A DNA stretch of 64,000 bases from Haliotis cracherodii. Lineage: Eukaryota. The position numbers and the translations under genes are program-made. Within the stretch, counting starts at the first letter, position 1, and each line of letters opens with the position of its first letter. The notes under the pieces are model-generated. The model was not told where the DNA came from, searched no databases, and saw only the letters and a list, made by a program, of their open reading frames with translations. Below are positions 5,977 through 40,743 of the stretch, in pieces. The stretch lies in the NCBI RefSeq assembly GCF_022045235.1, contig NW_027266330.1, positions 19,530,001 to 19,594,000 on the forward strand, in the 5' to 3' direction.

Positions 5977-6171
5977 GAGTGAGTGAGTGAGTGAGTGAGT
6001 GAGTGAGTGAGTGAGTGAGTGTGGTTTTACGCCGCTCTTAGCAATATTCCAGCAATATCACAGCGGGGGACACCAGATACGGGCTTCACACATTGTAACC
6101 ATGTCGGGAATCGAACCCGGGTCTTCGGCGTGACGAGCAAACGCTTTAACCACTGGGCTACCCGACCGCCC
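5977..6171 (-). mobile_element. SINE family A (tRNA-like head with GTC anticodon-like loop, (CACT)n tail)
   Basis: A-box/B-box head (tagcccagtggttaaagcg...gggttcgattccc), shared tail, 7-bp TSD tctactt at 5970-5976 and 6172-6178. Confidence 0.9.
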
Positions 6172-10756: not shown

Positions 10757-11116
10757 AGCAGCTCTCACACTTTGCCGAGGTGGTTGCCGAGCTCTCCCGA
10801 GCCTAACTCGGTTAGGACTCGGGAAGAGACTACATATATACGAGTATCATACGAGTACGCTACGAGTGTGTTACGAGTCCAATAGGAGTCTAATAGGAGT
10901 CTATTAAGAGTTGCATACGAGCACAACGATCTCGATACGAGCTGTACGAGTTTGGTGCGAGTTTAGTACGTCTTTGGTACGAGGTGGCTACGAGCTGCTA
11001 AATGATTCGGCGGGAATTAGCTCATATTAGACTCGGTCAATTCGGCAATAAATTTTGCAGACGATCCTCATACGAGTTCTGTACGAGCACCACGAGGTAC
11101 TACGAGTAGGAAGAGT
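10757..11116 (+). mobile_element. Probable DNA-transposon end (Harbinger-like terminus) with 11-bp periodic TACGAG subterminal array
   Basis: Begins ttaa-gcagctctcacactttgccgag, followed by TACGAG-type motifs mostly spaced 11 bp apart. No partner TIR found. Confidence 0.45.
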
Positions 11117-11311
11117 GTGATTGATGCTCAGGAGCCACACTCTCACAACTACGAAGACGGGCAGTTCATTATCTCAGGCCTTGACACGCCCCAAAGTGTA
11201 AAAGAATCTGCCAACTACTGCCGTGACCCATCACGTAGCGGGTATTTGTGGTGTGACACCTCGAATCCAAAGGCACGTCGGGAAAAGTACGATGTCCCTA
11301 TGTGTTCCACG
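11117..11311 (+). pseudogene. Degenerate kringle-domain exon fragment
   Basis: Translation DAQEPHSH...ANYCRDPSRSGYLWCDTSNPKARREKYDVPMC matches the kringle consensus (W.SQ.PH.H...NYCRNP...PWCYT.DP..RWEYC.VP.C) but has lost conserved Y/W/C residues. TEs abut it on both sides. Confidence 0.75.
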
Positions 11312-11601
11312 TGTAACCTGGGTCCTTTTTCTTGATCTTCGCAATCAGGAGACACCACAGCAGGAACACAACAACTTGTTTCAAGTTGAGATAAGTTTTA
11401 TTTAAACGGTTTTGAATAAGGTAAAACAGATACCGCACATACGTGCTGGCAGCAATCTGAGTTACTTAGGACCCTCTGACCTATCTACTTGCGTCCCGCA
11501 AACCGTTCTCCCCGAATGACGATTTTCCACCTCGTTTTATCCTTAAACTTTTCTACGTCATTCTAATGATAAATTACTATGATGTCACGAGGTTGACCAG
11601 C
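11312..11601 (-). repeat. Outer element 3' LTR (partial; most of U3 absent)
   Basis: About 97% identical to 26018-26315 plus one indel; similarity stops abruptly at 11601. Confidence 0.9.
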
Positions 11602-11711
11602 CACACTTTTCACTTTTGTCTGCACACTTATTATCCACACCGTAGCCGCTAGTTGAACGCCTTCATTCACTTGAAACACACCGTAATTCCCCGCCATTTC
11701 GTTGAGAGTTC

Positions 11712-13881
11712 TTACTGCACCAATTGGAATGAACCTGTTCCTTGATTTGGTTTCTGACTGGGTACGCCAAGGGGTGCCGATGTAAGAGGCATGTTCTCTT
11801 CATCAGAGTTCTCATCGTGGGATGTTCGTCCTTTGCTTATCTTCTCCAGATAAACCGGTGAATGTTTTCTCTTCTGACCCGCTAGTCGTGGAGCTGGTCT
11901 AGGAAAAGCTTCTTGGGATCGTGTGTTGGTGTTTTTTTCGGTCATAGAGATCAACTCTTCCTGGACTGATCGGTGGGTTCTAGGGTTTCTCTCTCTCAGT
12001 CCTACCCGGTCATGATCATTTTGTCTGCTAGCAATATCCCTACTTCTACACTTACTCCTTAAATATGCAATACTAAGTATAAATATAACTATAACCACTA
12101 CACATACTCCAATAATAGCATAAGAAATGGCTAAGGTACTTGATGGATTAGACTGAATACCATTATTAAAATTGATATCTTCATCTGCAATATCTAGATC
12201 ATCCAGTAATTCATCAATGTTATCGACCGGTTCTATCGGTGGAATTTTAAACTGGGTAGTTCCCTTAGTGGACGTTACCAATTTAGCCGTGGGTTTGGAA
12301 ATTGGCGTCGTATACATTTCCAGACTTAGTTCCTTATGGAAACTAGGTCTAATTTTATATTGCGACTCAGGCCTCAAATAAACTGGCAAGCTAAAGTGAG
12401 TCGAGTGTGCGGAGCATCAGATGGGTTTGGATATCACACTTGCCCCCGCCTCTACTGATATAGTAGTGGGTAATTCGGAGTCTGGAGGAAGACAAGCTAA
12501 CTCAATATCTAATCTTTCCTTAGTAAACACTAACCATTTGCCTCTCGCTAATGATTTAATAATAGGAGTGTCTGACGGAGGTTTAATTTCGCTTTCACAA
12601 TTTTCCTTTATCTAATCTGATTTTTTGTAAAAACAGCGAGGTTATACACTCTGGAACCATCGTGGTAACATAAGTAGCCGCAATCAGGGGACAATACGCT
12701 ATATCCTGTCTCGTACAAGATGAAACTTCAGTTTTGTCTAATAGTGTGTATTTTCCTTTATCAGGTGATATCGCCAAAAAGTCGGTCTCGGTTTGGAAGG
12801 TATATGTTGTATTTCCGACTACATTCGGAGTAGGTACCATTACCATTTTGTATAACTCAAAGTACACTGAAATTTGTAGTAGCGGTATCGCCGTTATTAC
12901 ATGGAAGGAATTTCGATCATGTAAAAGCGTAGAATGGAAGTTTTGATAGTACAATTTGAAGGTATCCTTGCTTACTACGTAAGGTAGTCTTTGTGTAGGT
13001 GGTAACCTCCGTTTCAGGGTATACAAGACCTTACGTAGGGCATGTACAGGAATTAATGTCCTAGAGATCTGTCCTTGTATACATCTTATCACTTGATTAA
13101 ACATATCTTGAAAAGTCGCACCCAGGGAGTCAATTGCATTGTTTAACAAATGAAACATAGCGTGAATTTGACCTACTGTTTCCGTATAGGATATTACTGG
13201 CTTCATTCCCAGACTAATTTTGTCGTATAAATCATAAATTTTGGTAGCCATAGTAACCGTGAGATTTCCCAGCCTATTTATACTTGCTCGGTTTACCTGA
13301 ATGTCTGTATTCGTAACGTTTAATATAGTAAGGCTACGTTCTAGTTCATGGATAACCTTTTCCTGGCTATTTCTTAAAGAATTTATGTTCTGCCTAACTC
13401 TATCCATCTCGTCCTGACTTGCTGTACCGAATAATTGGGACAGGAATCCGCCTACATTCAGTAGCGCTCTCTTCTGTCTTTTTCGTTTGCCCTGCGTCCG
13501 TGTAACAGTTTGTAGTTTTCCATACAAAACTCTAAACTTGTTATATTTGTCCAATATCTGTTGGCTCTCCTTTTGTAGCAAAGCCTGAATGCTGTTATGT
13601 ATATATTGATTCACGTCCTCGTATTTACTCGTCGGTATTTCTAATTCGTTCACCGTATTCCGAAACATATGAATATTGTCTTTAATCTTATTTAATTGTC
13701 GGTCATAGGGTCTAAGATCCACTGTGAAAGATATTAGCCAGGGACTATAGGAAGCGTACACGGCGGTCAAGTGTACAAATTTTAGTCCCGCTAAAGCTTT
13801 CCCTGGTTGCACAGACTGCATTAATACAATTATCCCTATAAAGCTTAACACTGAGAGATACCCTAGAACCATCTGTAACAT
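11712..13881 (-). pseudogene. env: Envelope (class I fusion, baculovirus F/errantivirus env-like) glycoprotein, ~720 aa, with one frameshift (~12621) and one stop (~12418)
   Basis: Signal peptide MVLGYLSVLSFIGIIVLM; RKRQKR|ALLNVGGFLSQLFGTA furin site plus fusion peptide; heptad region; Cys-rich segment. The bridging frame IKENCESEIK...KPI*CSAHSTHFSLPVY joins ORF 12595-13881 to ORF 11712-12389, which has a TM helix (LAISYAIIGVCVVVIVIFILSIAYL) and a ~105-aa tail. Confidence 0.88.
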
Positions 13882-13912
13882 ACAATTTTAACAAGTTTGT
13901 ATTCATTCATTA

Positions 13913-13914
<2 letters not shown>

Positions 13915-13962
<48 letters not shown>
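13915..13962. repeat. (TA)n microsatellite between pol and env
   Basis: Direct sequence. Confidence 0.95.
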
Positions 13963-13964
<2 letters not shown>

Positions 13965-14382
13965 AAGCACATACATACATATATAGTTCCCATACTTAAT
14001 CCCGCCATACTATACTCGTATGCAGAGACATAACCAGTAGTTTTACTTATCTTGGCGTGACAGTACATTCCTGACGTCGCCCTGAACCGTGATTACTTGC
14101 GTTCAAGTAAATCAGGTACCTACTCCGACAATTCAACTTACTGAATTAAGTCGTGAGTTTGCCATCTGGGACCTTTACCATAGGCCTATCAGTCTCATCA
14201 CTTTACTGGTTAGTCCAGGATTCCCCGTTTCTGAAACTTCCTCCGAATCGTCGAACTCTATTTCGGTTTCACTGTCTGAATAAGTCTGCTCCATTCTGGC
14301 CCTTTTTTCCTGTTCGTTTACATGAGGGATAAGACCACCCTCCTTTTCAGACCTTCCCTACAAGAAATTGGACTATCCACGT

Positions 14383-15796
14383 CTATAGTCTCCTCAGTAG
14401 GGGAAACGGCTGACCAATGCACGAGCGGTAACTCGTCTTCTGTGTCGTACGAACTGTCACTGTCACTAGACTAAGTCCGTCATTACTCAAGGCCCTTGTT
14501 TCCTCAGCGTCAGCCTCGTTCGGGTCAAGAGGTCCTTGACCTCGTACAAGTGCATCGTTCGCACCTGCCGGTTGGTCGGAATCTGCCTCGGGGTCAGTAT
14601 CCATACTCTCTTCCCCCGAGCTGTAACCTTGCGGTTCTGTCCCTCCTAATTGGTTGTGTTCGTAGTTTCACTGGTAATTCCTTCCTAGCCTTCCCTACCT
14701 TAACCTTATTCAGTATCGGTTGGTATTGTTCCCTTTCCTCATCCCAAGTATTGTCGGGATGTGCCTCCCTTATATTTTCTGCGTGTACTAATTTTGTCTT
14801 CCCTGTCATCTGGTGTCTTATCCTAAAATTCACTGGTGAAATCTGTTCAACTATCCTGTAGTACGGTTTCCACTTTGAGGTTAGTTTCGCTGACACTTCC
14901 AACAAGGTGGTTGGGTCATAGTGGTATACTGCATCACCTACTTTAAACTTTAAACTGGATTTTGTTCTTAGCCCTACTTTCTCCCATATTCTGCTTTACT
15001 TCTAAAAAGGCTGTATTCAATCGCTGCAACATAGTAGGAACATAATCCTCCCCCATGTATTTAAGCTTGGGTTCTAACAGCGTGTCCATTGGTAATAACG
15101 GGTCTCTCCCATACATCAAGAAGTATGGTGTAAACTTTGAGCTCTCATTCACAGATGTACTTATCCCAATCGGTCTGCCTTCTATTGACATACTTACTCA
15201 TTGTGTCCTTCAGAAACCTTTGAAACCTCTCTGTTTCCCCGTTTGATGCTGCATGATAAGCTGAAGTTCTGATGTGATTTATATTTAATTGACCTGTAAG
15301 TTGGCTAATTACATCATTACAGAATTCAGTTCCCCTGTCCGAAATAATTCTTTTAGGGCAAGCATGTCTGGTATTATTTCTTCTAACAATACTCTGGCTA
15401 CCGTCTCTGCTTTCTTATCCGGAACAGGTATAACTTCGGGCCATCCACTAAAATGATCTATAATAGTGAGCATATACCTGTTCCCATTGTCACTCAGAGG
15501 AAAATCTCCACATGTGTCAATGCCAATAATCTGATAGGGATATTCCGGTTGTGGCATGTCTTGCATAAAAACCTTCTGCCTACGTAGCTTTTTAGCGTTG
15601 CACTTATCACATTTGCCCACGTAATTTACTACATCCTTGTACATGTTTGACCAGAAATACCTACTTCGTATCTTGTCATATGTCTTGTCTATGCCCGTGT
15701 GACCACTGTACACATTGTTATGCATACGGTCCAAGATAGTTTGAGACATTTCGCTGGGTATTGCTAACTGTAACGTGGGACTCTTGTTCTTTATTG
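14383..15796 (-). pseudogene. pol: Outer element integrase (frameshifted)
   Basis: HHCC (H-NNVYSG-H...C-DK-C), core IGIDTCG...IIDHFSGWPEV, TPYFLMYGRDP, and GPY/F-type KLTSKWKPYYRIVEQISPVNFRI, spread over several ORFs. Confidence 0.9.
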
Positions 15797-16339
15797 GTCG
15801 TAACTGCCTTTGGGCGTCCAGTGCGACCCTGCTACAGTTACTAAATGTATTGCCGTTCCTGGTCCTTGTGGTCAATTAAGCCATGACATTGCCACTCGCC
15901 TTGTCCACCGCGGCTCGGCTCCGTCAAGGAGTTATTGGTCTAACGACCCTTACTCCAAGTTGTCTGTATCAGCATTCACACACGCATAATAAAGAAACGC
16001 AACACCAGTTTATACTCACATAGTTTTACTTACTCTCAGCCCATCTATCAATACAGGACAGGATCAGACTGGTCAGGCTCGTCACTAGCTGGGGGAAACT
16101 TAGAACGATCGGGATTCGACTCGATCGATTGCAAACCGCGCTCTCCTCTCCTAATGTTGAAGGTATCATTTTATAGTGTTCGAGCCTGGCCTGTCCTTGT
16201 CACATGTCACAATACCTCATTTTGATTCTTTAAAAGTTAGATCTGACCATGAACTCATGCAACTCCTCATTGCAGCTATAATGGTTTTATTTGTTATCAT
16301 TTTTTAATGTTTCTGAGATGCATTTTTAATCTTATAACA
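15797..16339 (-). repeat. Inner element 3' LTR
   Basis: Direct repeat of 24413-24958; one terminal base is missing or changed at 15796; preceded on - by the purine tract aggcggagga (16340-16349). Confidence 0.95.
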
Positions 16340-16656
16340 TCCTCCGCCTGTGGACAAGAGCTGCCCACAGCTCGGAAATTCTAAGCATGAGTTCCGGTCT
16401 GAGATGTAAAATACAATCACAATAAACACAATAGAAGTAAAACAGGATCGATCATTTTCCATATATTAAATTGTAATCAATTTCATTTTTTTTAGAAAGA
16501 TCCGGAAAGCAGCGAATACTTTTACAGTCAAAATGTATTTACCTGGTAAAGAATAAGAGAAATGATCCTATGTTACTTCGTATAACCACAAAGCATAATC
16601 ACCACGAAATATTATTCAAATACAATGTAGAATTAATCAATAGCGATGCATAAATG

Positions 16657-17217
16657 TCAAATGTCACTGCACATGGCCACAATATGGCACCACCATTCAC
16701 GAAAGTTCATTTGTCGCTGGTCCCAATCGAATTCACTGGCTCCTTTCTTGTTTCGAAAAGTCAACTGGCGGAACGCTGCCCAACGTTCTTGAATCTTTGA
16801 AAACACACGGCCTATGCACACAGTCAGGTCCTCGGCTGGGGTGGCAAAGCGAGGTCGATTTTTCTTTACACTGCTTGAGTGTTGACCAGTCTCTGTCTAA
16901 AGATGTTGTATGCCGATAGAGTCACAGCGTGTATGCGGGGGACGCGAGCACCTGTATATGTAGACGGCGCTGGTGCTGACAGATATGGATAACCCTCTGT
17001 GGCTTGCGGTCTGTGTTTTAGCGGCAGAGGTGATAGGACAGTGTTCATCCTCGACAGAAAGCGTGTAGCCAGAAGCCAGATTAATGAGTTGACGTGGACC
17101 AGACGACAGCGGGGGAAGTGCTTGACTCTCCGCCCTATAGAATGGGGTACGGCCATCATCTACAACACTTAAAAATACTGGTAATTCACGAAGAACAAGT
17201 GAATAATACCATACCAA
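16657..17217 (-). pseudogene. Inner element accessory ORF4 (~186 codons, one in-frame TAG at 16897-16899), unknown function
   Basis: ORF 16897-17217 continues in the same frame past TAG (TETGQHSSSVKKNRPRF...EFDWDQRQMNFREWWCHIVAMCSDI*). It sits in a GC-richer block and is preceded by the acceptor-like tttctatag. Confidence 0.45.
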
Positions 17218-17912
17218 CTATAGAAATATGAACACATATGAAGATGTGACAGCAACAGCTCAGACTTCTGCTTGTAAAAATAAGACTATATAAACAATAA
17301 TAGTCTTCTGGCACATGCATATCTGCATATAAGGATGATAACGGCAGGAATCGAATTTTTTGATTAATTGTTACAGGTCCAATTGCGTAGCCAAATATTA
17401 TCATAAAAGACATTAATAAGCACGATCAAATCGCAAAACCCATGGACTGCTTGAACGGACTAACTATCATAAAATTCTAATCAACAACATTCAGCAAATG
17501 CTTTGTAGTTATCAATAACAAAAGGAACAACATATAAAATTATCAAGGGATGGACTGAGAGTACACATTGATACACACATAATGGACGATCAAAGACCTA
17601 GAATTACGTTTACATGAAGCAATTATTAGATAACCATGAACACGTATGCGTATAAATATATCCTTGCACTAGCAAGATAATCGGCGACTATATGTCGTTA
17701 GGATGCTTATCCGTTACCAACCTTAACTAAGTTTCATTAATCACTAACAATCCTACTTGGTAACAATAAAACAATGTCGCCATATGGTTCCTATAAACAC
17801 TCTCGTAGTACACTTATAAGAGGGGGGTAAAAATAGATGAAGGTGAGACGGACAGAAGAAGAGAAACGTATAGTTGAAAAGTAGTGAAGTCGAAGTAGCG
17901 GTTAAATCAACC

Positions 17913-18662
17913 TTACTCGAAATCCGACCACGCTATTTCTAACCGAGGCATGTCGGGATCGAAAGATGACGACCCACTGCTGGGCGAGTCGATGCGGCTT
18001 GGTGATAGGGGCCGTGGAGAAACTAGCGGAGGAGAGAAACGCCTCTCTTCTGGTAAACGCTGTAAGGTAAGTAACGGAGCACTAGAAGACCGTCGTGAAA
18101 TTTGATGGCGTCGAAGACAGTCTTCCAGCAGAGGAAGTGACGCCGTATCGGATACCACAGGGGTCACTAATGGGGCATTAAAAGTGGATGAAATAGGCGT
18201 ATGGCGCACAATTCGACACGACAGCAGCCCATACTCTATCTCCAGAAAGTCCAAAAATTGGACAGACGCTGTGAGATGTAATGGCAAGATATGGCTGGCC
18301 CGCGTTATCCATAATTCCATGGTGCGAAAGGGGGCCGTTCTGGATAATGCAGTCTGCGCACAGGCAAGGAACAGGTATTGTGATCGGAAATACTCCGCCA
18401 ATATCGTCACCTGTTCCAACGCCGCATCGTCCATTTTTCGAAGTTCAATTAGGCAGGGTAATAAACCTGCCAAGTACAAAACCACCCTCCAAAATGGTAG
18501 CGCGCGGAAATATATCGGACAGCTGATAGTCGTGTAGGAGCGCGGACCTTCAGCTATACGAGCCGAATATCCTCGTATGGTGTCCGCTAGTGTCGGGTCA
18601 ACTACCAAGACCTTATCATAAGCTAACCATTGGAAATAAGCATTGTTGTTGAGGGCATCCAT
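17913..18662 (-). CDS. Inner element accessory ORF3, 249 aa, BTB/POZ-like N-terminal half and Ser/Pro-rich tail
   Basis: Uninterrupted ORF from ATG 18662. FWRVVLYLAG...ALEQVTILAEYFRSQYLFLACAQTAL resembles the BTB helices F..IL.YL..G...L..L..A.YF.L..L...C...L. Confidence 0.6.
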   Translation of the reverse strand: MDALNNNAYFQWLAYDKVLVVDPTLADTIRGYSARIAEGPRSYTTISCPIYFRALPFWRVVLYLAGLLPCLIELRKMDDAALEQVTILAEYFRSQYLFLACAQTALSRTAPFRTMELWITRASHILPLHLTASVQFLDFLEIEYGLLSCRIVRHTPISSTFNAPLVTPVVSDTASLPLLEDCLRRHQISRRSSSAPLLTLQRLPEERRFSPPLVSPRPLSPSRIDSPSSGSSSFDPDMPRLEIAWSDFE

Positions 18663-18680
18663 GATCAAAAGTTTAACTGA

Positions 18681-18870
18681 CTGAGAAAGGAGCAAGAGGA
18701 TAAATAGCAAAAATCTCAACAATAAAATCCTTTACAAGGGAATGAGCCAAATAGCACAAAGACACCCTGTACAATGTGATAGACAAAAGTGAAAAAACAA
18801 CGTCTCACCGATACAAGTGAAAGAAGCGACGAGAGTGGGGTCGCTTGTAGGGTTGTAGGGGCCTTAAATA
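18681..18870 (-). promoter_or_regulatory. Putative internal promoter and 5'UTR intron for ORF3
   Basis: TATTTAA (18870-18864), Inr-like CCACTCT (A at 18836), donor cg|GTGAGA (18808), pyrimidine tract plus ttctcAG acceptor (18681) just upstream of the ATG. Confidence 0.5.
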
Positions 18871-19390
18871 CCTAGTATACCCTACCGACCATGATGCAGA
18901 GGGTAACACGTGGCCTGTCGTTAAAAGGTTTTTTAAAACAAAGACATTAAATTATAAAGTAACACGTGCCAAAATATCCTATTTGGGCACAGAAAACCAT
19001 CATCATTATTTCAAGGCAGCTGGCAAAAATGGAGAGGTCAACATAGCTTTTTAAAAAACCTCAGAGGATACTGCCCTCGATGTGAATCATGTCAGAGGCA
19101 ACGGAAAAGCGACTCCACAATGTTGAAGTACCATAAAACACCTGTCGTGGAAGGAAGGAATCGTTTTAAACGAAACGCCATTAGCCAACTTACATAAATT
19201 TTTCCAGAAATATATATAGATTGTGTCGGGGTTTGAATTTGCAAATTGTGACAATCAAACAGTAAATAATAAGTGAGGAATACCTGCTGAATACGAAAAT
19301 TAGTTAAAGGATTTCCAGCCGTTAACGTGAGGTCCCGGGGACAAAGATAAAACTGTGAGACCATAATTTCATGACAAGCAAAGGAATTTG

Positions 19391-22300
19391 TCAAATGTAA
19401 AACCTTGTCTTCCTGTCATAGTAATATTTCGCTTTGTTGTGGGCCTCTTGTAAATTGGTACGCGCCAATTTTCTAGTAACGTCTTTATGATGTAAAATTA
19501 CATCAAGCCGTTGCTTAATTGTTTGTGGTAGGGGTTCAAATGATTGTAATTCAACATCAACGGGTACTGAGCATTCTTGACCAAACAGGAGAAAGTAGGG
19601 TGAAAACCCAGTACTCTGCGTTGCCGGGCTAGTGTTATAGGCAAACATAACACCAGGGAGAAGCTCATCCCAATTGTCCTGGTTATCATTGATAAATATG
19701 CGGAGCGTTTGCACGATAAACGAATTTAGTCTTTCACAAGCTCCGTTGGTTTGTTGGTGATAACTACTAGTTTTCAATGGTTTGATCCCCAATATTGAAC
19801 ACACCGCTGTAAAGAGTTTGCTGGTAAAGGAAGTGCCATTATCAGTCAATAACACTCTGGGGATACCATAAACACAAATGTATTTTGAGTAGAATGTCTT
19901 GGCTACTTCCACAGCCTCCAACGAGGAAATCGGAATAGCCACGCTCCATCGGGAAAATGCGCAAGTTAACAAAAAAACATACCTATGACCTGCTTTTGTG
20001 GGTGGTAACGGCCCTAGGAAGTCAGCTTGAACACGATCAAACAATTTACCAGGGACTGGTACATGACAAAATATACTGCTTTATGTCCTCCAGCATATGA
20101 TGCCAATAGTACTTCTGTCTAATAGCATTGAATGTTCTGTCAATACCAACATGTCCAGCCAACAAGCTGTCATGGTATGCTTGTAAAACATGTTTTACCA
20201 ACGACTGAGGTATCACCAGTTGACGAATGATTCTGTCTTTCCTGTGGCCCCGGCCGGGCGGCGCATACAAGTGGTACAATATGTCATTGTCAAGGATAAA
20301 ATCCTGGCTTTGTAACAATAATGTACGTGTGGCCTTGTCATCAGTAGAAAAGGTTTGAGACTTAATGCAATCAATCAGCGCCCGTAGTTTATGGTCGTCA
20401 TATTGCCTCTGTGCTATGGAGTAATCTCCTAGGGGGTCGGACGTTACACTGAGAGGGTCGTTAATTGTGGAGGCATCATACAACTCTGATGTTACATCTG
20501 TTGCAGTCACAATCGATATTTGGTCGCCGTGGTCATCGGACTTGGCGAGAACATTGTCTGTACTGTTCGTATCAGTAGCAAACAAATAGGGGACATCTGA
20601 AAGTGGGTCATCTAACCCTGGTGGGCATTCTGGGTAAGGCAATCTGGACAAGAAATCTGCGTTACCCAAGTTTTTGCCTGGCCGATACTGAACTGTGAAA
20701 GTGTAATCACTCAATAAGAGTGACCAGCGGCTCAGTCTGGCTGAGCGGTCCTTATTGTCTTTCAAAAACTGTAAAGCTCTGTGATCTGTCACTACAGTAA
20801 ATGGGGCATGTGTCAAATATACCTTGAAATGTTTGATACCTGAAACTACTGCTAAACATTCTTTTTCTGTAATTCCATAGTTTTTCTCTGTTTTTGACAG
20901 AGCACGACCACTGTAGGCTCTGTTACTGGCATCTTTTTGACCGAGCAAATACCCTAGAGCGTCATCACTAGCATCTGTGTATAGGATAAATGGTTTTTCA
21001 AAATCTGGGAATGCTAAAATGGATGGTTTTAGCAAAGCAGATTTGAGGGTTTGAAATGCCTGTTCTTGTGCTTCCGTCCAAACAAATTTTGTATCCTTTT
21101 GCAACAATGAATGAGCTGCTACTTTGGAGAAACATTGAATGAAGCGACAATAAAATCCTACCATTCCGAGGAAACTTTTAACGTCTTTAGGCGTTGTTTG
21201 CGTCGGAAACGAAGCTATCACGCTAGTATTTTCAGGGTCTACTTGTACTCCACTATTTGAAAAAATATGTCCCAAGTAAGCAACTGACAGTTTAGCAAAT
21301 TGGCATTTTGATGGCTTCGCTTTCAAATTTGCGTTGCGTAGGCACAAAAATACTTCTTCTAAATCTGCTAAATGTGTTTCAAAATCCGAGGAGAAGCACA
21401 AAACATCATCTAAACAGCACATTGTTTTACGCCAATTGAGATTGCGGAAAACGTCATTGATCAGTCTTTGAAATGTTGCTGGGGCAGAAGCCAGACCAAA
21501 GGTCATACGATTGAAGTGATAGGTACCACTAGCTGTCACAAATGCACTTTTAGGTTTACTTTCTTCATTCAGCGCTAATGGCCAATATCCCGCTGCCAGA
21601 TCTATAGTTGTGTAATATTTTGCATGTGCTGTGCCCAAAACATCAAGAACATCTTCTAATCTCGGCATTGGGAATACTATCGGCAATGAGCACGAATTCA
21701 CAACTCTGTAGTCGATGGCTAGACGCCATGATGGAGTAGAACCCTTGGCCTGTTTCTTAGGCACCATAACAACTGGAGAAGCCCAGGGGCTATCATGATC
21801 TGGTTCAAATATGCCTAAATCTACTAACTCCTGAACTTGACGATCTATCTCTACACGCATAGCAGGATTTGTACGGTAAAATCGTTGCCTAACGGGTGGG
21901 GCATCTCCTGTAGCAATATCTCCTGCATGCACTGAATCATTTAACCCAATTTCTGAGAGATTAATGGCAAAACAGTCGCGATACCTGGCTATCAACTGAC
22001 CTATTTGTGCTTGTTGCTCCTGTGACAAGTGGGATGAAGAAAAATCAATATTCAACTCACTTAATCTCGCGTCTATTTCTGACTGAGAGAGGGAGGGTTC
22101 CGATTCGGAGGGGTAATGTGACTGTAGGGGTGTAATTTCATCGGAGTGTACCAAAGTGAAATGAGCAACTTCATGACCTTTTGGAATGTCCACAGCAAAA
22201 TCGTTAGTGTTAATGACTTGGTACACGCTTTTCCCTGAACTTGCCGAAACAAGACAACGAGCACCAACAACCTGATGTGTTTCCGACAGGACTGGGTTAG

Positions 22301-22992
22301 GTTCACATATGCCTACCTGATCAGACGGGGAGCAACCCATGTAAACTGGGAATATGATTTCAGACTGAGGGGGAATTGTGAATGCCTGCAGTGCTCGAAC
22401 CGGGATGGTTTCCTGCTCTACCGTCTGTGGATAGGGGTCCGATACTAGGGGTGGGATATCATTGTTTGCCCAAATGGAAACAACTGATGAGCCATTTTGA
22501 AGAGTTAAAGTGCAAGATTGGAAATTTAAGACAGCATCTTTCTGAATCAGAAAATCTAATCCTAAAAACATTGGTGACGCTAACTCTGCAACTACTTGAA
22601 AGCGTTGTTCCATTTGAAAATCACCAATTGTGATGGGAAGTAAAACTTGTCCTAATACTGGTACAATATTTTGACCTTTTCCCTGAAGAGAGGTCACATC
22701 AGACTTTTGAATGGGGATTTCTTTCCACAGACCCGAGTCATAAAAAAACTTCCCGACTTAAAATACTAATAGAAGCGCCTGAATCCACAATTGTAGAAAC
22801 TAATTGGTCTCCCAAAATAACATGAATCCTATGCTTGTTGTCATCTTTTGAAGTGACTTGCAAAACAGGCGATTGAGGACGACTGTAACTTGGTGAAATA
22901 GTAACCGGCGACTCACGCGAGTGCAAGTTAGTGGGGACAAAAACATGCTCAGCACAGTGGCAATGTGGCTTGCGTGGTCGGGAATTTAATTG
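19391..22992 (-). pseudogene. pol: Inner element pol (protease-RT-RNaseH-integrase), disrupted
   Basis: Protease IVDSGAS; RT SPWASPVVMVPKK...DYR...MTFGL...CLDD (catalytic YxDD mutated); RNaseH LYTDAS...EKECLA...TDH; IN H..GH...YYW, DFLGPLP, TDNG, ERLN. Frameshifts at about 22740 and 20046; IN C-terminus truncated. Confidence 0.93.
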
Positions 22993-24051
22993 CTATCTGC
23001 TTTGAGGAGCTCCTGACTGCAACCGGGCATTACAAACACGTTGCAAATGTCCCACTCTCTGACAATAATGACACCTTATATTACGGGCGGGACATCTATC
23101 AGGGTGAGAGAAATCATACTCACCACCGCATCTGTAACAGGGGCGTGCCCGAGCCATGGTCCGTCCAGTGTTGTACTGTGTGCGTTGAGGAGGGGGCTGG
23201 CGTCTCTGCTGGTGTGGTCCGTCCGGATACGAGAGTGGCTGGAACTGCTGTCGGGGAGGCTGCCACGGCCGAGTTGTATACCTAGAGGACTGTCTGGGGG
23301 GTTGGGAATATCGATTCTGTCGTGACTGGAAGGTATTAATCTGGGACGACGATGGTGCGAGCTTTGCCGCGAGTGTAGCAATCTGGTCTCTCAGAGTATC
23401 AATTGCCAACTTGACACCTGTATTTTCTGCAATTTGAGGGATTATGGATCGAGCCAAACGTGCAAACGAAACAGCTTCGTTCAGAGCTGTCGGCTGTTTT
23501 ATTAGCACGTGTTGCCTCGTACAGTCATCCAGTCCCCGAACAAATGCATCCATCAAGTCCATGTCAGTCTTACCTAATAGGCTAGCTGTCTGGGTCAAAT
23601 CCGCTAAATACGTGTCTATAGGTTCAGTTGGGGATAACCTACGACTCACGAAAGATTCTAGAAGGGCCCACCGGTCAGTTGGGTGGACGTACTTGTCCCT
23701 GAATAATTTCTCTACCTCATCCAAAATGATGATATCTTCCCCTAGCGATTGTATAAGATCTTTGTACCAGAGATACGCAGAGTCCTTCAAAAATAGTGGA
23801 AAAACTTCTACTTTCTGTGCGTCAGTCCACTTTTTAAAGTTTCCAAAATGAAGGAAACGGTCAAGCCATTCCGCAGCATGAGTCGTGTCTCTGCCAGTGA
23901 AATGTTCTGGCATCAAGGTCGAATCTCCCATATTGAAGTCAGGGGGTGGATTTTGTGCGTCGGGGCCTGAGGACGAACTTAATGAGGAAACGTCAGGGAG
24001 AACACAAGCGTACTGATGTAAAAGCTCGTCGGTAGAGGGAGATAAGTCCAA
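22993..24051 (-). CDS. gag: Inner element Gag with two zinc knuckles
   Basis: PEHFTG...EWLDRF capsid-like region; CYRCGGEYDFSHPDRC and CHYCQRVGHLQRVC knuckles. Likely ATG at 23931, or a frameshifted N-terminus from 24230. Confidence 0.9.
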   Translation of the reverse strand: MDLSPSTDELLHQYACVLPDVSSLSSSSGPDAQNPPPDFNMGDSTLMPEHFTGRDTTHAAEWLDRFLHFGNFKKWTDAQKVEVFPLFLKDSAYLWYKDLIQSLGEDIIILDEVEKLFRDKYVHPTDRWALLESFVSRRLSPTEPIDTYLADLTQTASLLGKTDMDLMDAFVRGLDDCTRQHVLIKQPTALNEAVSFARLARSIIPQIAENTGVKLAIDTLRDQIATLAAKLAPSSSQINTFQSRQNRYSQPPRQSSRYTTRPWQPPRQQFQPLSYPDGPHQQRRQPPPQRTQYNTGRTMARARPCYRCGGEYDFSHPDRCPARNIRCHYCQRVGHLQRVCNARLQSGAPQSR

Positions 24052-24396
24052 ACTCTGTTCAGAAATAGGGGAGAGGGTTCCTGGGGAGGAGGCGGCGGTG
24101 GGGGTGGTTGGGAGGGAGGTTTTGTTAGGACAACTCGGGGGGAATTCGAGAAAATCGTACCAGTAAGGAGGCGAGCTGGGGCAAGACGGTCACCTGACGG
24201 AGATGTATCAGAATTTGGTGTATGAGACATTACCAGCCCAACTACACCATGTAAGTCCAGAATACCCTATCCATACGTCAAAATGAAACCGTACCTTCAA
24301 ACGTAAGTCTGGGTGGGGCGATGGAATTGAAGGATGGGAACGACAATACGAAAAACAAAGAATGGGATCGTCTTAAACATTTTGTTCAAGAGAAAA

Positions 24397-24412
24397 CCCG
24401 CATACTCCACCA
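24397..24412 (-). promoter_or_regulatory. Primer binding site, tRNA-Ala-like
   Basis: TGGTGGAGTATGCGGG directly follows the 5' LTR; complementary (1 mismatch) to a tRNA-Ala 3' end CCCGCATTCTCCACCA. Confidence 0.75.
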
Positions 24413-24958
24413 TGTCGTAACTGCCTTTGGACATCCAGTGCGACCCTGCAACAGTTACTAAATGTATTGCCGTTCCTGGTCCTTGTGGTCAATTAAGCCA
24501 TGACATTGCCACTCGCCTTGTCCACCGAGGCTCGGCTGCGTCAAGGAGTTATTGGTCTAACGACCCTTACTCCAAGTTGTCTCTATCAGCATTCACACAC
24601 GCATAATAAAGAAACGCAACACCAGTTTATACTCACATAGTTTTACTTACTCTCAGCCCATCTATCAATACAGGACAGGATCAGACTGGCCAGGCTCGTC
24701 ACTAGCTGGGGGAAACTTAGAACGATCGGGATTCGACTCGATCGATTGCAAACCGCGCTCTCCTCTCCTAATGTTGAAGGTATCATTTTATATAGTGTTC
24801 GAGCCTGGCCTGTCCTTGTCACATGTCACAATACCTCATTTTGATTCTTTAAAAGTTAGATCTGACCATGAACTCATGCAACTCCTCATTGCAGCTATAA
24901 TGGTTTTATTTGTTACCATTTTCTAATGTTTCTGAGATGCATTTTTAACCTTATAACA
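24413..24958 (-). repeat. Inner element 5' LTR (546 bp, TG...CA)
   Basis: tgtcgtaa...ttataaca; direct repeat of 15797-16339. Confidence 0.95.
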
Positions 24959-25469
24959 CTTCTAATTCTATTTGGAAATAACCACTTTTTAAATCCAGCA
25001 CAGTGTAATACTTTGCCTCGCCCAAATCTGATCTCACATCTTCCATGTGCGGGAGAGGGTAGCTGTTTTGCCTTAACCGACGGTTCAACATTCTTATGTC
25101 TATACATACTCTCAGTGGTTTGTGCGGCTGTTGTACTAACACTACTGGAAAAGCATATTCGCTCGTAGACGGTCTGACAATACCTGCATCTAACAGATCC
25201 TTAATCTTCTGTTCTAACTCTGGTATTTGATTTAGAGGTACCCGGTAGGGTTTCTGCCTAAAGGGGGACTGACCCCCTGTGTCCAATTCTGCCTTGATAA
25301 CGTCAGTCTTTCCTAATTTCATATCCGACTCTACAAATAGTTCTGAATTTGCTCTAAATATTTTCCGTATTGCATAGCGCTGGCCGGGCGGTACATGGTC
25401 AAGTTGTATTTTTCTCAATTTGGCTGTCGTAGGTGTTACTTCTGCTGTTCTTACATGAGTAGTCCCCAC
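24959..25469 (-). pseudogene. pol: Outer element RT N-terminal fragment
   Basis: FRQKPYRVP...IVRPSTSEYAFPVVLV...RVCID.RMLN...YPLPHMED...LDLKSGYFQI, cut by the inner LTR before the YxDD motif. Confidence 0.9.
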
Positions 25470-25752
25470 TCTCCGTATTTGTTCTTCTCAATACCTCTAT
25501 TCTGTGTCTTTCCCTTGCCAGTACTCCTTCTATCCTTCTCCCTTGCATTAGAGAATGATATGCAGTAATAATCTGGGCGGAAGAATTTTCTTGATGCTCC
25601 GTGCCACAAAACTTATGGTACACTATCCAAGCGTTTAGCAGGGGAGACCTTCCTACCCTTTCCCCTAAATTCCTTTCTATGGTTGCTGCACTAACCGGAC
25701 TAACTCTGGCTAGTTCTAATGCTACGTCCCACGGTAGGGAATGGGCGTTCAT
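25470..25752 (-). pseudogene. Outer element first ORF remnant (probable gag N-terminus; rest of gag and protease deleted)
   Basis: ATG ORF about 270 bp after the 5' LTR that abuts the pre-RT region; no capsid, knuckle or protease motifs remain. Confidence 0.45.
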
Positions 25753-26017
25753 TCTATTTCCATCAATTACCTTCCTTTTTAATTTTACTTATATCTATAT
25801 ATTTCCTTAACTTAGTTCTTTGTTAGTTAATTTCTTCTTAACTAAAATCTATACACTAAATGCTAGCAGAACAAATTGAGTCATTTAGGGCAAAACTTAC
25901 CTTGAGAGATTTTCCTAACTGTATTGGTTCCTGGGGTGCTCCTGATTGGAGATTTGTTGTCCAAGATCCGGGTTTCTTGCAGCACCATAACATTTCGACT
26001 CCGGGATCAGTCTAGCT

Positions 26018-26834
26018 TGTAACCTGGGTCCTTTTTCTTGATCTTCGCAATCAGGAGACACCACAGCAGGAACACAACGACTTGTTTCAAGTTGAGATAA
26101 GTTTTATTCAAACGGTTTTGAATAAGGTAAAACAGATACCGCACAAACGTGCTGGCAGCAATCTGAGTTACTTAGAAGCGCAGTGACCTCTGACCTATCT
26201 ACTTGCGTCCCGCAAACCGTTCTCCCCGAATGACGATTTTCAACCTCGTTTTATCCTTAAACTTTTCTACATCATTCTAATGATAAATTACTATGACGTC
26301 ATGAGGTTCACCAGCACGTCACTATTTATTATTATGAAGACTGAGTAGTTAAACAGCTTCTTAGTGACTTATCCGAGGTTTTGACCTCGTATTCTAAGGT
26401 TAATCTCATCTATCAAGTCCTTGATATACCTACAACTATGGAGGTCGGACCAGTTCTCTCCTCGTACAATTCGTATAGTTAATGCTATCTAATAATTTCT
26501 CTTCAATCACCTTGGCTGTTTCGTGACAACCTTAACTCTCTACTTGACTCCGAGATGTCATATTCCTCCCCGTACTCTACACCCTGTCATTCTCAATAGA
26601 AAACCAATTAATTAAATATAATTGGTCGCCACCTGCGCTCCTCGTACATATAGTTATACAACGTGAGTACATTAACAAACCATGTAGTTGTACATATTAA
26701 TTCCTTCACATCATTTCATATCATAGTCAATTTAACACTTTCATATTAATATATAATTCATGTACACAAATATACTTGCATTTATCTTAATTATTTATAT
26801 ATAATTATAACCGGGAGTGCAACCCCTGGTTACA
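26018..26834 (-). repeat. Outer element 5' LTR (817 bp)
   Basis: Inverted termini tgtaacc/ggttaca; - strand AATAAA near 26103-26108; CRE palindrome TGACGTCA at 26294-26301. Confidence 0.88.
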
Positions 26835-28444
26835 CATGCCAAATTGACTTGATTACAAGCACAATATTGACCCAATGGACCTCCCTCTCCTTCACCCTCC
26901 TATTGACGGAAGCTATTGTCTGGTCTAGGTTCTTTGCTATATTTCTATGGCGAGGTGTCGGATAGATTTGCCATTTTGCAACATTAAAATCTGTCAATGT
27001 CAAAAGAAAATAACTGTGATTGTACGTACGCTTCTTATAATAAAAGACTGGACTTATGGCCTCCAGAACGTAGACTGGTTTCCCGTGCGTTCCTGCGACA
27101 GACTGCGAAGGAAGAGCAGGGACACTGACACCAAGCGGAGGATCTGGGAACCAGTGCGTGTTTGTGTGTTTCTTAGGCGAGTTCATAGTGCCATAGTCCA
27201 CTGTGATCCCACGGGATACCCCAGTGAGACACAGTATACAGTCTCTGAGCTCGAGCCGACCTGGCCTTCCTAAATGCAGAGCGTCAGGCAGGGTAATAAC
27301 AAGTGCCATCTGTTAACGTCTTTTGGTATGACGAGGCTGGGGATCGAACCACAGAGATTGCGCTCCCTCATGCTTGATTATATATCCCTATAAGGGAACA
27401 TTTTAAGATAAAACCAAAGATTTTTGAGATTTTCGTTATAACACGCATGTAGAGGCCGGATTGACATGCACATTTCTGTTTTCCCATATTGAATTCGCTC
27501 AAAATTGCTCTGTTACTGAGCCGAATGTATAAATGTTTAAACTCTAAGATAAGAAGTCACTGGATCATGGTCAAGTTTGGTATTTTAACTAAGTACAATG
27601 TTTTTACCACGCTTGCCGCGATCAGTAGTGTTCGACCTTCACCTCACTACACGTCCACTTGGATGGCTTTATGTCGGCGGCAAGTCGATGTCAGCGAGTA
27701 GTTTATATTTGTACATCTGTATTGAATTTATCGAATCTGGACCAGATAAACCAACAGTAGGTTGTAGCATCACCGACCCCACGGAATAATGATACATAGT
27801 TATCCTCTAGTTCACTGTCAGCGCCCGTACACCCAGGTACATCACACCTCGATATTGGTTGCTAAAGTATCACGCTAGTTCGGATTTTAACACATATAGA
27901 AGAAGCTTCATTACCAGAATCTTCAAATCAATATAAACCAGATGATATGTTTTGTCTTCACAAACAGTTGACCTTTGCTTTGGATTTCCTGCATTGCCTG
28001 TAAGATAAAACACATTCGTGATCTCTCGTGTCTTTACGGGAAATACCGAATACGGGAAAGGGATTAGAAACGATCCATTCTGCTTGTCTCGAAATGAATA
28101 CGAGAGGTCACGAATGGAAACGATAGGGTTCAACGCAAACTTGACCCAATCCGGCTTGTTCCGTTGTGGATTCACACAACCTTTCTCTTGGACTGGTTGT
28201 CTGATTCTGTATAACGTTTTATTTCTACCAAGGAATGCGTGAACAAGGTCATATTATTCATCGGAACCAGCCCAAGAACGCCCTCAACATCGAGGCTGGT
28301 TTCAGATAACGAACCCCCTGGATAACCCTGCAAACCATCGAGACTTACTCATGCGCATTCCCAGAACGGGTTATAGGCAGTTTCAGTGTTGGCCAGATAG
28401 CCCACACTGGGAGTACAGGATAACATGGTAAGGCTATTATTATC

Positions 28445-29512: not shown

Positions 29513-29552
29513 GTTGCTATTGCTGCTGCTACTACTACTACCACTTCTTGTA

Positions 29553-29717
29553 GGAGCGGTGGTGTAGCCTAGTGGTTAAAGCGTTCGCTCGTCACGCCGA
29601 AGACCCGGGTTCGATTCCCGACATGGGCACGATGTGAGAAGCCCATTTCTAGTGTCCCCCGCCGTGATATTGCTCGAATATTGCTAAAGGCTGCGTAAAA
29701 CCATACTCACTCACTCA
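29553..29717 (+). mobile_element. SINE family A
   Basis: Full head and tail, inserted in the CTA tract. Confidence 0.9.
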
Positions 29718-29735
29718 TTACTACTACTACTACTG

Positions 29736-29770
<35 letters not shown>

Positions 29771-31064
29771 GGTTACAGGCCGGCAAAGCCACATTTCGAA
29801 AATAGATAGCCCAAATTGATGTGGCGCTCCCGGCAATGGTTATGGTTGCGTGATTGTATAATGTGGCTCTCGCGGCTATGCTGTCAAAACATGCTTTGTG
29901 ATTCTAACAGGTTACCGTATATCACAAAACAAGTCTTGTTTTCTCATTTCTTATTCAACAAGGATAACATATTCATCAGAACTTTACATTGATGAATATG
30001 AATAGCATATGAATATCATAATGGATCATAACTGCAGATGAAGGAGGTCGCCCACGTGGTCAGCATATTCCATCTCACTCAGGTGTTGGTTCAGGAGCTG
30101 GATCTTGAGGGACGCAATACGTGCATCGATTGCCTTGTTCTTCGTGAAGGTTCTGACCACTGGTGAGAGAGTCTGAGGACTGCAACCTCTTTGAGTGACT
30201 GCTCTCGCTGAAATAGCTTCACTACCTCGTAGATGTTCGGGTGGCACTTCTTGGCAAGTTTCTTTATCTTGTTGTGCCACCCTTCCAGGTGATTGTTGGT
30301 ACGGTGGCCTTGGTTTTCGAAATGGTTCCAAATCTCTGGCATTAAGGCCTGTCCTTGAACCCAACTGGTTGTCACGTAGTCCATGAAAGCAGTCACTTTA
30401 GGGCCAGCAGGAGAGTCAGCAATGGCATCAAGCCACACATCATCCACTTTGTCACTTTGTGAAAGAAACACCCTCTAACTAATGTTCCAGGAAATACATC
30501 AGTCACGGCATTGTGAGCTGCACGTTCAAAGTCCAACTGAATTGTAAGTGGGGCAAACTCTAGACCTCCTCTACTAGCAAAATCGCATAGGTACTGAAAC
30601 ATGTTGACATAACACTCTTTTTTTCGATTGGACAACAAACAGTAAACTAATAGAAACATATGGCCAAACACCTCAGCATGTAAACAATAAATCTGATCAA
30701 ACAACTTGGGACAGGCATAAAATGTACCATCACAAAATACAATGTCTGCAGTACACAAATGTTCAATGTTCTTGTCTGTAGTGAAGATGAGGATGTCGTC
30801 ACTAACACGGTGTAGGAACTGGTCGCCTCATTTAAAGGTATCTCTAAAGAACACCACGCTTAGTAATTTAAATGTGAGATACTCATTTAAAGGTATCTCT
30901 AAAGAACACCACGCTTAGTAATTTAAATGTGGGACACTCATTTAAAGGTATCGGTAATCGGATTAATTAATTACCCGCTAGAATAGGTGAAATGCACTCA
31001 GCTGAAAATGTGGCTCTACCGGCAATAGCCATTTCTGAAATGTGGCGCTCCCGGCTAGACACCC
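29771..31064 (-). mobile_element. Internally deleted Mutator (MULE) DNA transposon
   Basis: Transposase motifs FCDGTFYACP...LVYCLL...LDFERAAHNAV..VFP...RGCFFH and RTNNHLEGWHNK...HPNIY; imperfect TIRs sharing gccgg..gccacatttc; CTA repeats on both flanks. Confidence 0.85.
30827..30952. repeat. 55-bp tandem duplication (2.3 copies) inside the MULE
   Basis: Units start at 30827, 30882 and 30937. Confidence 0.9.
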
Positions 31065-36665: not shown

Positions 36666-37579
36666 TTTTCAAACGTAGCCTGTATTAAGGAATATATTTT
36701 AGATCTTAAATCAGAGTTTTACGGACAGCCTGAGCTGAGGCGCGCGTGGATATGTGTTGACAGTTTTAACGTACTTAGTGTTAAAACCGAATGTTTGCGA
36801 GGATTAATACGATTTCTGAATTCAGTTACAACAGTAACCGTACATGTGTTGTTTACATTAAGTCATTTCATTCACATTTGTTTGATTATGTCTTATACTT
36901 GTTTTAGGATGGAAGGTACAGTTACCAAATAAAATATGCTGAAATATCAATTCATTATGACCATATTTTATAATCTATTTTTTAAAGTAACCCTCCTTAC
37001 ATTAAAGATAACTATCTAAAGAATATAGTACTTAAAAACATTGCAACAAACCGAATTATCAAGGAGGAGACTTTATACTGAGGGGGGCGCGAAATACATC
37101 CGCCCGGGGGAGATTTTATTTCAGAACGGATTCTCCGGGGGAGAATCTGTACCGGTATAAAATCTCCGGGGGGAGAATTTGTACGGGGGAGAGTTTATAC
37201 CAGGACACCGGCGCGGTGTGCATGCTGGCAAGAGTCTCGCTCTGATAACAGCTGTTTAATGTACGCGTGCTGGTTACGTCATCAGTTGATAAATCTCGCG
37301 AGGAATGCCGTGACTTAGCAAGTGCATGGGTCCCGAGAACGGGTCTTCTTACGTCAGTGAATGGTGGTATTTCATGATACTAACATATACTTAGTGATCT
37401 ATAGAATTCGTCTCTGCAGACTGAAACCTGTTTCCCACATACATGTGACCGTGCCATAACTAATTAACAAACCCAACACCCCTCCCTAATCGTGATATTA
37501 TGATATTCATTATCTGATAACGTGAACATATATGCTTCAGTATCCGTTTCATATAACTGTGACACATGCCTTCAGACTT

Positions 37580-37740
37580 CACGGGTAGCCAAGTGGTTAA
37601 AGCGTTCGTTCGTCACGCAAAGACTAGGGTTCGATTCACGACATGGGTACAATGTATGAAGCCAATTTCTGGTGTCCCCCGCCGTGATATTGCTGGACTA
37701 TTGCTAAAAGCGGCGTAAAACCATACTCACTCACTCACTC
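37580..37740 (+). mobile_element. SINE family A
   Basis: Head and tail match the other family A copies. Confidence 0.88.
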
Positions 37741-38159
37741 AGATTTCAGACATATCCTTAAAAATAGGAGCTGATGCAGCTCTTTGAAAGAGAGTAAAAA
37801 GTCTGTGGTCACAGCTGGCTAATGTGAAAGTGATATATGAAAAAACTACAAAAATTGGGTTTGTAATTCGAGTAACTTTTTTTTGTTTATTTTTTATTCA
37901 GCAATATCTCAGCGCCACGACGGCATTATAATAGTTTAATAATAGCATTTTGTCGGGCAGATTTGATTGAATTATTGTAACCGAAACAGATGGAGGGCTT
38001 GGAACTCTTCTTGCCTTGTCCTGAGTTTGTTAAAACATAACATAAAATGAGTTAATTGTAGCATCTAAATGTTGCAATATGTTTATCTGTTCACAGTTAT
38101 AAACCTATGTAAGTTATTCCGATCAATTAAGTAAAATATCAAAATCACACAAGCCGGAA

Positions 38160-39270: not shown

Positions 39271-39590
39271 TACCATGGGGGAAAGAGTCGTTAAAAGAAT
39301 AATTATTCCAGAAAATACATTAATTAATTTTTTTAATTGTTTTCAAAAACATGCTGGACATGCTGTACACCCTGAATACAAATGGTAGTTTCCAGGGGTA
39401 AACCTTGCGTGTCTCACAGCGGTGACAGAGACAACAACAAAAAACAAAACCTGACATAATTCCCCCCGGGGAATGGAACCAGAATACACCATCGACATCG
39501 ACATTTCTGACATTGAGGTGTCATACCCTTTTCTGAATAAAAGTATACAACAATTTCAGCTTGCATGTTATCTTCGTGAGTGGACAATAA

Positions 39591-39753
39591 GAGTGAGTGA
39601 GTATGGTTTTACGCCGCTTTTAGCAATATTCCGGTAATATCACGGCAGGGAACACCAGAAATTGGCTTCACACATTGTACCCATGTCGGGAATCGAACCC
39701 GGGTCTTCGGCGTGACGAGCGAACGCTTTAACCACTTGGCTACCCGACCGCCC
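39591..39753 (-). mobile_element. SINE family A
   Basis: TSD ggacaataa on both sides. Confidence 0.9.
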
Positions 39754-40743
39754 GGACAATAAGAGGCGACTGAAATGCCACATGGGTATCGCATGGTCAA
39801 AATGGATGCTTCTTGGAGAGGTCATAACTTGGGGAAACCAAGCATCATCAGTGACCCGGGTCAGGTGGTCCCTAACGCTGCCCTATAATTATTTCATAAC
39901 CATAATGATCATATTTCAATAATACATATTGATAAAGTACAAAACTTATTATTTAAATATGAAGATAATTATTTTGAAGCATAGTGTTTTAGGAGTATTA
40001 CAATATTTAGAACAATGTCAGTTGTATAGAATCTTTCACTCGTCTGGCTTCCAGACCCTTGAGAATTAATTAAAAAGGGAACACAACTCAGGTCTAGAAT
40101 GATTTGGCAAGTCTAGCCTGAAATTAAGTATTGTTCTTGGCTCCATTTGGATTGTATTTTATTTTTTGGAGATATATATTTTTGAATAAGATTTTATTTC
40201 TGGAAATAAATGTTAGTCTTAATCTTCACTGAAACGGACGGAAACTTATAATTGCAATCACGCGTTGCATTAGACTTGCACACGTCTCCAAGGCAATACT
40301 TATTAGTTTAAATCATAATTTCTAGATTATATATAACAAGTTGCCATTATGTAAGAACGTCATCGTTAGACTGTCCGCTTCCCTCGACTTGCATATTATA
40401 TGTGTAGGATTACTATACATCCATGGCCTTATCGTTCAGTATTGCCTTGGGGCAAGGCTAGATTTACACAAGTCTCTAAGGCATTAATTAGAGTTTAAAT
40501 CATAATTTCTAGATTATATAAACAATAAGAACAAGTTTTCCCTATAAAATAATGTCGTCCTTAGACTGTCGGCTTATCTAATCTGTCCTACTATAAGGAT
40601 AGAATTACGATACACCCATGGACTATCGTTATATACAGCCTAGGAGAAAGGCTAGCGTTGTTTGTACGGTGCACAAGTGAAATTGTAATCTTCGCGGTGC
40701 TGTTGGGCATGTGCATTGCATTACTGATGTCATGACCCTCTGA

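Follow-up and report, generated by a model that had tools for sequence, protein, structure and literature searches.

Within a 64-kb stretch of DNA (the window, taken at its full length), a decayed retroelement on the minus strand carries, behind a Gypsy integrase, a gene for an F-type envelope (Env) protein. We put the probability at roughly four in five that the locus is one dead insertion of a gag-pol-env Ty3/Gypsy LTR retrotransposon with an F-type env, which later decayed neutrally. The anatomy of the gene, its family, its predicted fold, its place behind the integrase and its damage are what the analysis itself shows.

An env gene in three collinear pieces

The env locus begins with an ATG at 13881 and ends with a stop codon at 11712-11714 of the minus strand, a span of 722 codons that gives exact coordinates to the ~720-amino-acid ORF that an initial annotation of this DNA had placed between the integrase and the 3′ LTR. 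It lies behind the Gypsy integrase, with 110 bp between its end and the LTR copy that follows (11312-11601), and is divided into three pieces:

12595..13881, minus strand: env piece 1, 428 aa, with a hydrophobic leader, furin-type site (13479-13468), fusion peptide (13467-13420), heptad helices and Cys cluster
12417..12611, minus strand: env piece 2, 64 aa in another frame, the start of a second beta-rich domain, closing at the in-frame stop 12417-12419
11712..12416, minus strand: env piece 3, 234 aa, with the end of the ectodomain, a TM helix (12116-12060), a 115-aa cytoplasmic tail and a basic patch (11879-11862)

A (TA)n microsatellite, some 45 bp in length (13918-13962), sits directly upstream of the ATG.

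The only breaks in the gene are a frame switch at about 12600-12640 and the stop at 12417-12419. Among the 60 best relatives in a tblastn search, 39 carried on into the second frame near the frame switch and 36 spanned the stop. A profile of env built from 149 relatives, with the window sequence left out, mapped pieces 1, 2 and 3 collinearly to 6-414, 418-476 and 481-624 of its 652 positions (E 3e-121, 1.2e-10 and 5.8e-15, respectively); when it was searched against the window's 1622 six-frame pieces, nothing beyond these three scored better than E 0.16.

The motifs noted in the initial annotation, namely a signal peptide, cleavage site, heptad repeats, Cys cluster, TM helix and long tail, could each be located, the signal peptide as a putative one. 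Hydropathy marks a hydrophobic N terminus at residues 2-20 (Kyte-Doolittle 19-mer mean 2.24), and the cleavage motif RQKR occupies residues 135-138, followed by a hydrophobic fusion peptide with a mean Kyte-Doolittle (KD) value of 1.2. In the alignment of 149 relatives, R138 is conserved in 141 of 145 non-gap rows and the fusion-peptide residue G152 in 143 of 149, and, taken together, R138, G144, G152 and the cysteines at 389, 397 and 412 are each conserved in 95-100% of non-gap rows. Heptad periodicity extends over residues 156-223 and 228-268. The TM helix (KD 3.17), which in this copy lies behind both breaks, has a C-terminal counterpart in 100 of the 106 relatives of at least 600 aa among the matches listed. 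At 115 aa the cytoplasmic tail is long, yet within the range of its relatives, whose tails have a median of 75.5 and a maximum of 149 residues, with at least 110 residues in 6 of 100.

The basic patch in the distal tail is common to P0002, P0003 and P0004, three of the four full-length members of the clade in which this env falls, which has a support of 99, and is not enriched across the family; spotted post hoc, it resembles in its sequence a trafficking or nuclear-localisation signal. A tail motif, GxKR, was rejected as a family-wide feature, having occurred in 4 of 100 tails against a shuffle mean of 1.0 and a shuffle maximum of 4, and stays a lead for the nearest clade only.

Env resembles baculovirus F proteins in sequence and predicted fold

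The likeness to baculovirus F and errantivirus Env proteins that had been proposed for this gene was borne out by profile, homologue and fold searches. Piece 1 matched the Pfam family Baculo_F (PF12259) at E 3.7e-15 with 56 bits, compared to a curated cut-off of 24.1, and a 50%-representative library yielded 1348 relatives at E<=0.001, the best of them 34-38% identical and most of them 630-770 aa long. Baculo_F was likewise matched by 18 of 25 relatives scanned, and 7 were without a match. The stop-free env pieces, which were the part scanned, gave no match to the Pfam family Gypsy (PF07253) at E<=0.1. An Atlas ranking placed Baculo_F first and gypsy-Env clusters second and third, at 0.95-0.97, with low recognition value.

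A search of the PDB with the Env family profile returned two entries labelled 'fusion protein', 9w4d and 9w4c, at E 2e-31, and the next match at E 0.007; the corresponding single-sequence search reached E 0.2 at best. A word-index homologue search with piece 1 found none of 2707 candidates at E<=0.001, and the same kind of search with a 150-row Env alignment found 2 matches only. Of 51 pattern matches in genomes of bacteria and archaea, none was confirmed as an env relative.

The class I fusion fold postulated for the protein was likewise recovered in a model of piece 1. Predicted with AlphaFold2 (pLDDT 83.8, pTM 0.73), the model matched baculovirus F proteins in BFVD at E 6e-17 to 2e-16 (TMq 0.50-0.61) and RSV F in the PDB at E 2.7e-7 (with a low TM-score of about 0.3, as for solved F proteins in general), and a full structural alignment with HMPV F gave Z 11.3 and an rmsd of 4.5 over 299 residues, a Z score to be read against unrelated helical bundles that reach Z 10.2, about 1 lower, over about 110 residues. 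The fold of the C-terminal part comes from a model of the intact natural relative P0004, with the piece 1 model covering the N-terminal part only. In that model an extra beta-rich domain (419-480) is followed by two helices, one membrane-proximal and one TM, and the tail is disordered. Piece 2 corresponds to residues 414-474 of P0004, which are beta-rich in its model; because pieces 2 and 3 map onto the beta-rich domain and the anchor parts of P0004, piece 1 alone would be without that domain and without an anchor. Together, sequence and models support the view that this env, borne by a Ty3/Gypsy element, encodes a class I fusion protein of the F type, similar to baculovirus F and errantivirus Env.

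The element that carries env

The element to which env belongs, hereafter the outer element, extends over 11312-26834 on the minus strand and comprises, besides env, the following parts:

26018..26834, minus strand: 5′ LTR, 817 bp, bounded by TG...CA and with short inverted repeats at its termini
25977..25988, minus strand: candidate primer-binding site, starting TGG, 29 nt from the 5′ LTR
25488..26017, minus strand: leader remnant, about 530 bp between the 5′ LTR and RT
24959..25487, minus strand: N-terminal part of RT, cut at a nested element; RVT_1 E 1.7e-4, under the curated cut-off
14597..15796, minus strand: integrase, broken into four pieces with three frame changes and comprising the H2C2 zinc finger, core and p58-type C-terminal domain
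11312..11601, minus strand: 3′ LTR remnant, the last 290 bp only, with the upstream ~519 bp and the adjoining polypurine tract (PPT) missing

Between the 3′ remnant at 11312-11601 and 26018-26315, 281 of 290 ungapped columns are identical. The 9 mismatches amount to 3.1%, in agreement with the LTR divergence of ~3% given by the initial annotation, over the 290 of 817 bp that the two ends have in common. That figure did not come from the LTRs of the nested element, a possibility that we ruled out, those LTRs differing by 1.8%. The remaining 519 bp of the 5′ LTR, sought in 11602-14600, gave nothing above shuffle level, and no purine tract was found next to the 3′ LTR. Both termini of the element are intact, flanked by CACG on the left and CATG on the right, which is probably a 4-bp target-site duplication with one CpG-type change, although with one mismatch in four the resemblance could be due to chance.

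Toward the 5′ end, the candidate primer-binding site had no identical entry in the accessible part of the table of Chary and Hayashi (eLife 2026; PMC13524379). Neither gag nor protease was found in the leader remnant, in which the longest ORF had no Pfam match, and pol relatives align from about 25480 only. The RT piece is 38-51% identical to 5 full-length pol relatives and ends at the junction with the nested element, where a median of 417 pol residues (range 391-453), comprising RT and RNase H, is missing before the integrase, as estimated from the 26 scorable of 45 pol relatives. The integrase matched the Pfam families H2C2 (E 1e-20), rve and Integrase_p58_C (E 7e-8), and its pieces are collinear on relatives.

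The RT and integrase pieces have the same nearest relative, P0152, which groups with the RT piece at a support of 98/93 in a tree of library pol relatives and is the top match of the integrase; this agreement favours a single element, in a comparison that is not fully independent, the relatives having been chosen through the integrase. In addition, for all 26 scorable relatives (of 45) the outer RT was a better match than the inner one, a preference partly built in by their having been picked with the outer integrase; the correlation with the outer-integrase score was only slightly higher for the outer RT (rho 0.54) than for the inner RT (rho 0.44).

The order of RT upstream of integrase, the combination of H2C2 finger, core and p58-type C-terminal domain, and the TG...CA LTRs with a probable target-site duplication of 4 bp (4-6 bp in the group) are those of Ty3/Gypsy elements. 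By its anatomy the element counts as an 'errantivirus' as Chary and Hayashi use the term operationally. An intact errantivirus, in the accessible text of these authors, has uninterrupted gag and env and a pol with full RT and integrase; in the outer element gag and protease were not found, pol has a gap, the integrase is in four pieces and env is in three. The 'only two lesions' of the initial annotation thus describe env correctly but not the element, in which gag and protease, RNase H and the PPT are missing, as are most of both RT and the 3′ U3, and the integrase is no longer intact.

A second Gypsy element nested in pol

Between the RT and integrase pieces lies a second element:

15797..24958, minus strand: nested Gypsy element, with LTRs at 24413-24958 and 15797-16339, gag at 22993-24189 and pol at 20046-22757 and 19391-20080
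17913-18731, minus strand: extra ORF of the nested element, 272 codons stop to stop with a Met at 18659, between its integrase and 3′ LTR

It matched Pfam families for gag, RT, RNase H and integrase, and a single frame change interrupts its pol near 20060. No piece of it matched the env profile, and no target-site duplication was found around it. Its LTRs differ at 10 of 543 bases (1.8%), so that the LTR ages of the outer and nested elements are indistinguishable (9/290 versus 10/543, Fisher p 0.33). The extra ORF, for which there was no Pfam match, no env-profile match and an Atlas score of at most 0.86 with low feature overlap, is possibly a captured or accessory gene. A primer-binding site at 24395-24412 abuts the 5′ LTR and is akin to tRNA-Ala entries in the accessible part of the PMC13524379 table, and a purine tract (16340-16349) is present at the 3′ LTR.

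Surroundings in the window

A kringle-domain fragment on the plus strand (11021-11311; Pfam E 3.1e-5, under the cut-off) ends at the left terminus of the outer element, and its frame would stop two codons past the element's right flank. From this sequence context, the outer element appears to be inserted at the end of a host exon or pseudo-exon represented by the kringle fragment. Elsewhere the window contains MULE transposase fragments (30026-30827, minus strand; Pfam E 2.5e-12), several minisatellites with units of 37, 22, 28 and 61 bp, and numerous short repeats, dispersed and with (GAGT)n or (CAAA)n at their ends (6004-6171, 29541-29721, 37569-37741, 39588-39766, 56216-58627 and others). 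These repeats, of which two copies score as tRNA-like, are probably tRNA-derived SINEs. A search for an abundant repeat of the host gave no match in genomes of bacteria and archaea and no paper in the literature covered. A PirA-like Pfam match at 26830-27312 (minus strand; E 0.011, 16.6 bits versus a cut-off of 27), whose frame overlaps a dispersed repeat, was taken as chance.

Discussion

The history that we propose for the locus starts with an intact member of the family, in which Env would enter the secretory pathway, be cut at the RxKR site by a furin-like protease, and be carried on the particle as a TM-anchored trimer. The heptad helices would then refold, the fusion peptide would insert and the membranes would merge, and the RNA genome would pass from the producing cell to another cell, most likely a germ cell. 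We infer the cleavage, trimer formation and membrane fusion of this Env from baculovirus, paramyxovirus and Drosophila systems. Any spread of the family from soma to germline is likewise carried over from Drosophila, in which, according to the accessible portions of PMC12992720 and PMC13524379, Env lets soma-expressed elements reach the germline. During the decay of the inserted copy, a second Gypsy element would have inserted into pol, three large deletions would have taken gag–protease, RT–RNase H and PPT–U3, and small lesions would have struck the integrase and env. Neutral decay at the 1.55% divergence per LTR would be expected to leave about 1.3 stops and 2.6-3.9 indels in env (the indel rate being based on 2-3 events), and we observed one of each, which fits neutral drift and gives no sign of env being preserved.

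Three other histories of the locus, and one broader view of its family, have to be set against this one. The 5′ LTR and RT half and the integrase–env–LTR half might derive from two copies of the family, joined via the nested element in a chimera or mis-assembly. Such a join would be in keeping with the lack of a target-site duplication around the nested element, with the loss of about 417 aa of pol exactly there, with the 519 bp of 5′ LTR that have no counterpart at the 3′ end, and with four N gaps elsewhere in the window; however, the outer flanks form a near-perfect 4-bp duplication, both termini are intact, no N falls inside 11312-26834, and even in a chimera env would remain linked to a Gypsy integrase and LTR. 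We consider this origin unlikely. It is also rather improbable that the element was non-autonomous or env-defective already at insertion, either as a deletion derivative copied in trans or as a member of a lineage that had traded infectivity for germline expression. Normal reverse transcription cannot yield a lost PPT or unequal LTRs, so at least the PPT–U3 deletion must be later than the insertion; moreover, the damage to env, with 2 breaks in 2.2 kb, is lighter than that to the integrase, with 3 in 1.2 kb, and is consistent with decay after insertion. In favour of such an origin are the absence of gag and protease without a visible cause and the repeated decay of env-F in active Drosophila lineages described in the accessible part of PMC12992720.

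A more far-reaching view would have the family recently active, with intact members remaining, and working as an infectious retro-element of a marine mollusc that moves between cells or, via sea water, between animals, its Env and the fusogen of abalone herpesvirus deriving from exchange between mollusc Gypsy elements and malacoherpesviruses. We give this little credence; the pointers to it are only the intact-looking motifs, the 3% LTR distance and a fold match. Least probable, in our estimation, is a role for piece 1 in the host, which would retain it as a secreted Env without a membrane anchor to keep related elements from infecting. Truncated Env restriction factors exist in mammals, and piece 1 has an open frame of 428 aa, its own ATG and leader, and a confidently predicted fold. 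Nevertheless, an open stretch of that length is expected at 1.5% divergence per LTR, the frame stops just short of the second beta-rich domain, and the 5′ LTR is 12 kb away with the nested element between.

With the locus read as one dead insertion of an env-carrying Ty3/Gypsy element, its family is one more, apparently uncatalogued (best listed Env relative 38% identical), in a class widespread in molluscs and other invertebrates. The outer element is probably a copy of a family without a name so far, a judgement in which published mollusc elements were compared by description, not by sequence; no paper on this particular LTR family was found in a literature whose coverage left subscription journals and Repbase outside. 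The field's open question, as it emerges from the accessible literature, is whether such envelopes make particles infectious outside Drosophila, which a dead copy cannot answer and for which the intact, multi-copy elements already published from molluscs are better suited. This copy is useful for probing for its sister copies, and it gives an example, with a date attached, of how such elements decay.

The initial annotation had regarded such elements as poorly characterised in lophotrochozoans, a view overtaken by PMC13524379, which reports 1512 intact env-carrying Ty3/Gypsy elements and, in its accessible tables, lists 46 elements from molluscs, 36 of them from bivalves and 10 from gastropods, each classed as ENV_F and designated 'ancient errantiviruses'. 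The outer element is like these mollusc elements in its pol-env order, in an LTR length within the tabulated range, and in an F-type Env that combines a furin site and fusion peptide with stalk helices and a TM. Those elements are intact and mostly multi-copy as tabulated, whereas the outer element is not intact; many of them have a chromodomain, and none was found behind the outer integrase in the 4 pieces scanned. According to the same source, the 'ancient errantivirus' group has RNase H plus a 'mini' domain in the bridge region, the region that is deleted in the outer element. The accessible part of PMC13524379 also lists pol-env matches in three Haliotis genomes, two of them annotated 'No intact copies', which, if the host is an abalone, as its repeats may suggest, weakens the hope of intact sisters.

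Among viral proteins, the predicted fold of A0A145VUZ2, an 801-aa 'uncharacterized' protein of abalone herpesvirus, matches the env model at E 1.9e-10 and P0004 at E 3.4e-20, with 9-13% identity. It ranks 12th for the env model and 7th for P0004, under baculovirus F and some chuvirus-like glycoproteins, and the fold-match rank thus does not support a special kinship of Env with abalone herpesvirus. An 'envelop fusion protein' is annotated in the abalone-herpesvirus group in the accessible part of PMC6353905, and the accessible part of PMC13030845 describes a class I-like protein in an alloherpesvirus. The piece 1 model also fold-matches Ranid herpesvirus 2 ORF72 and chuvirus-like glycoproteins, as would be consistent with F-type fusogens in allo- and malacoherpesviruses. 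Baculovirus F (Ld130-type) and the pneumo- and paramyxovirus F proteins share with Env a cleavage site followed by a fusion peptide, a class I fold (predicted for Env) and the Pfam family, at identities of 12-17% to four baculovirus F proteins and 9-12% to RSV and HMPV F; unlike them, the outer Env is borne by a retroelement and has a longer cytoplasmic tail.

Infectivity has been demonstrated for the insect ERVs of Drosophila only, and the transmission mode outside Drosophila is still unknown according to the accessible text of PMC13524379. The env of insect ERVs is a spliced ORF, whereas env of the outer element has a complete leader after an in-frame ATG. In domain layout the two are alike: as described in the accessible portion of PMC12992720, the Env-F of gypsy, ZAM and Idefix also has a signal peptide, furin site, fusion peptide, cysteines, TM and tail.
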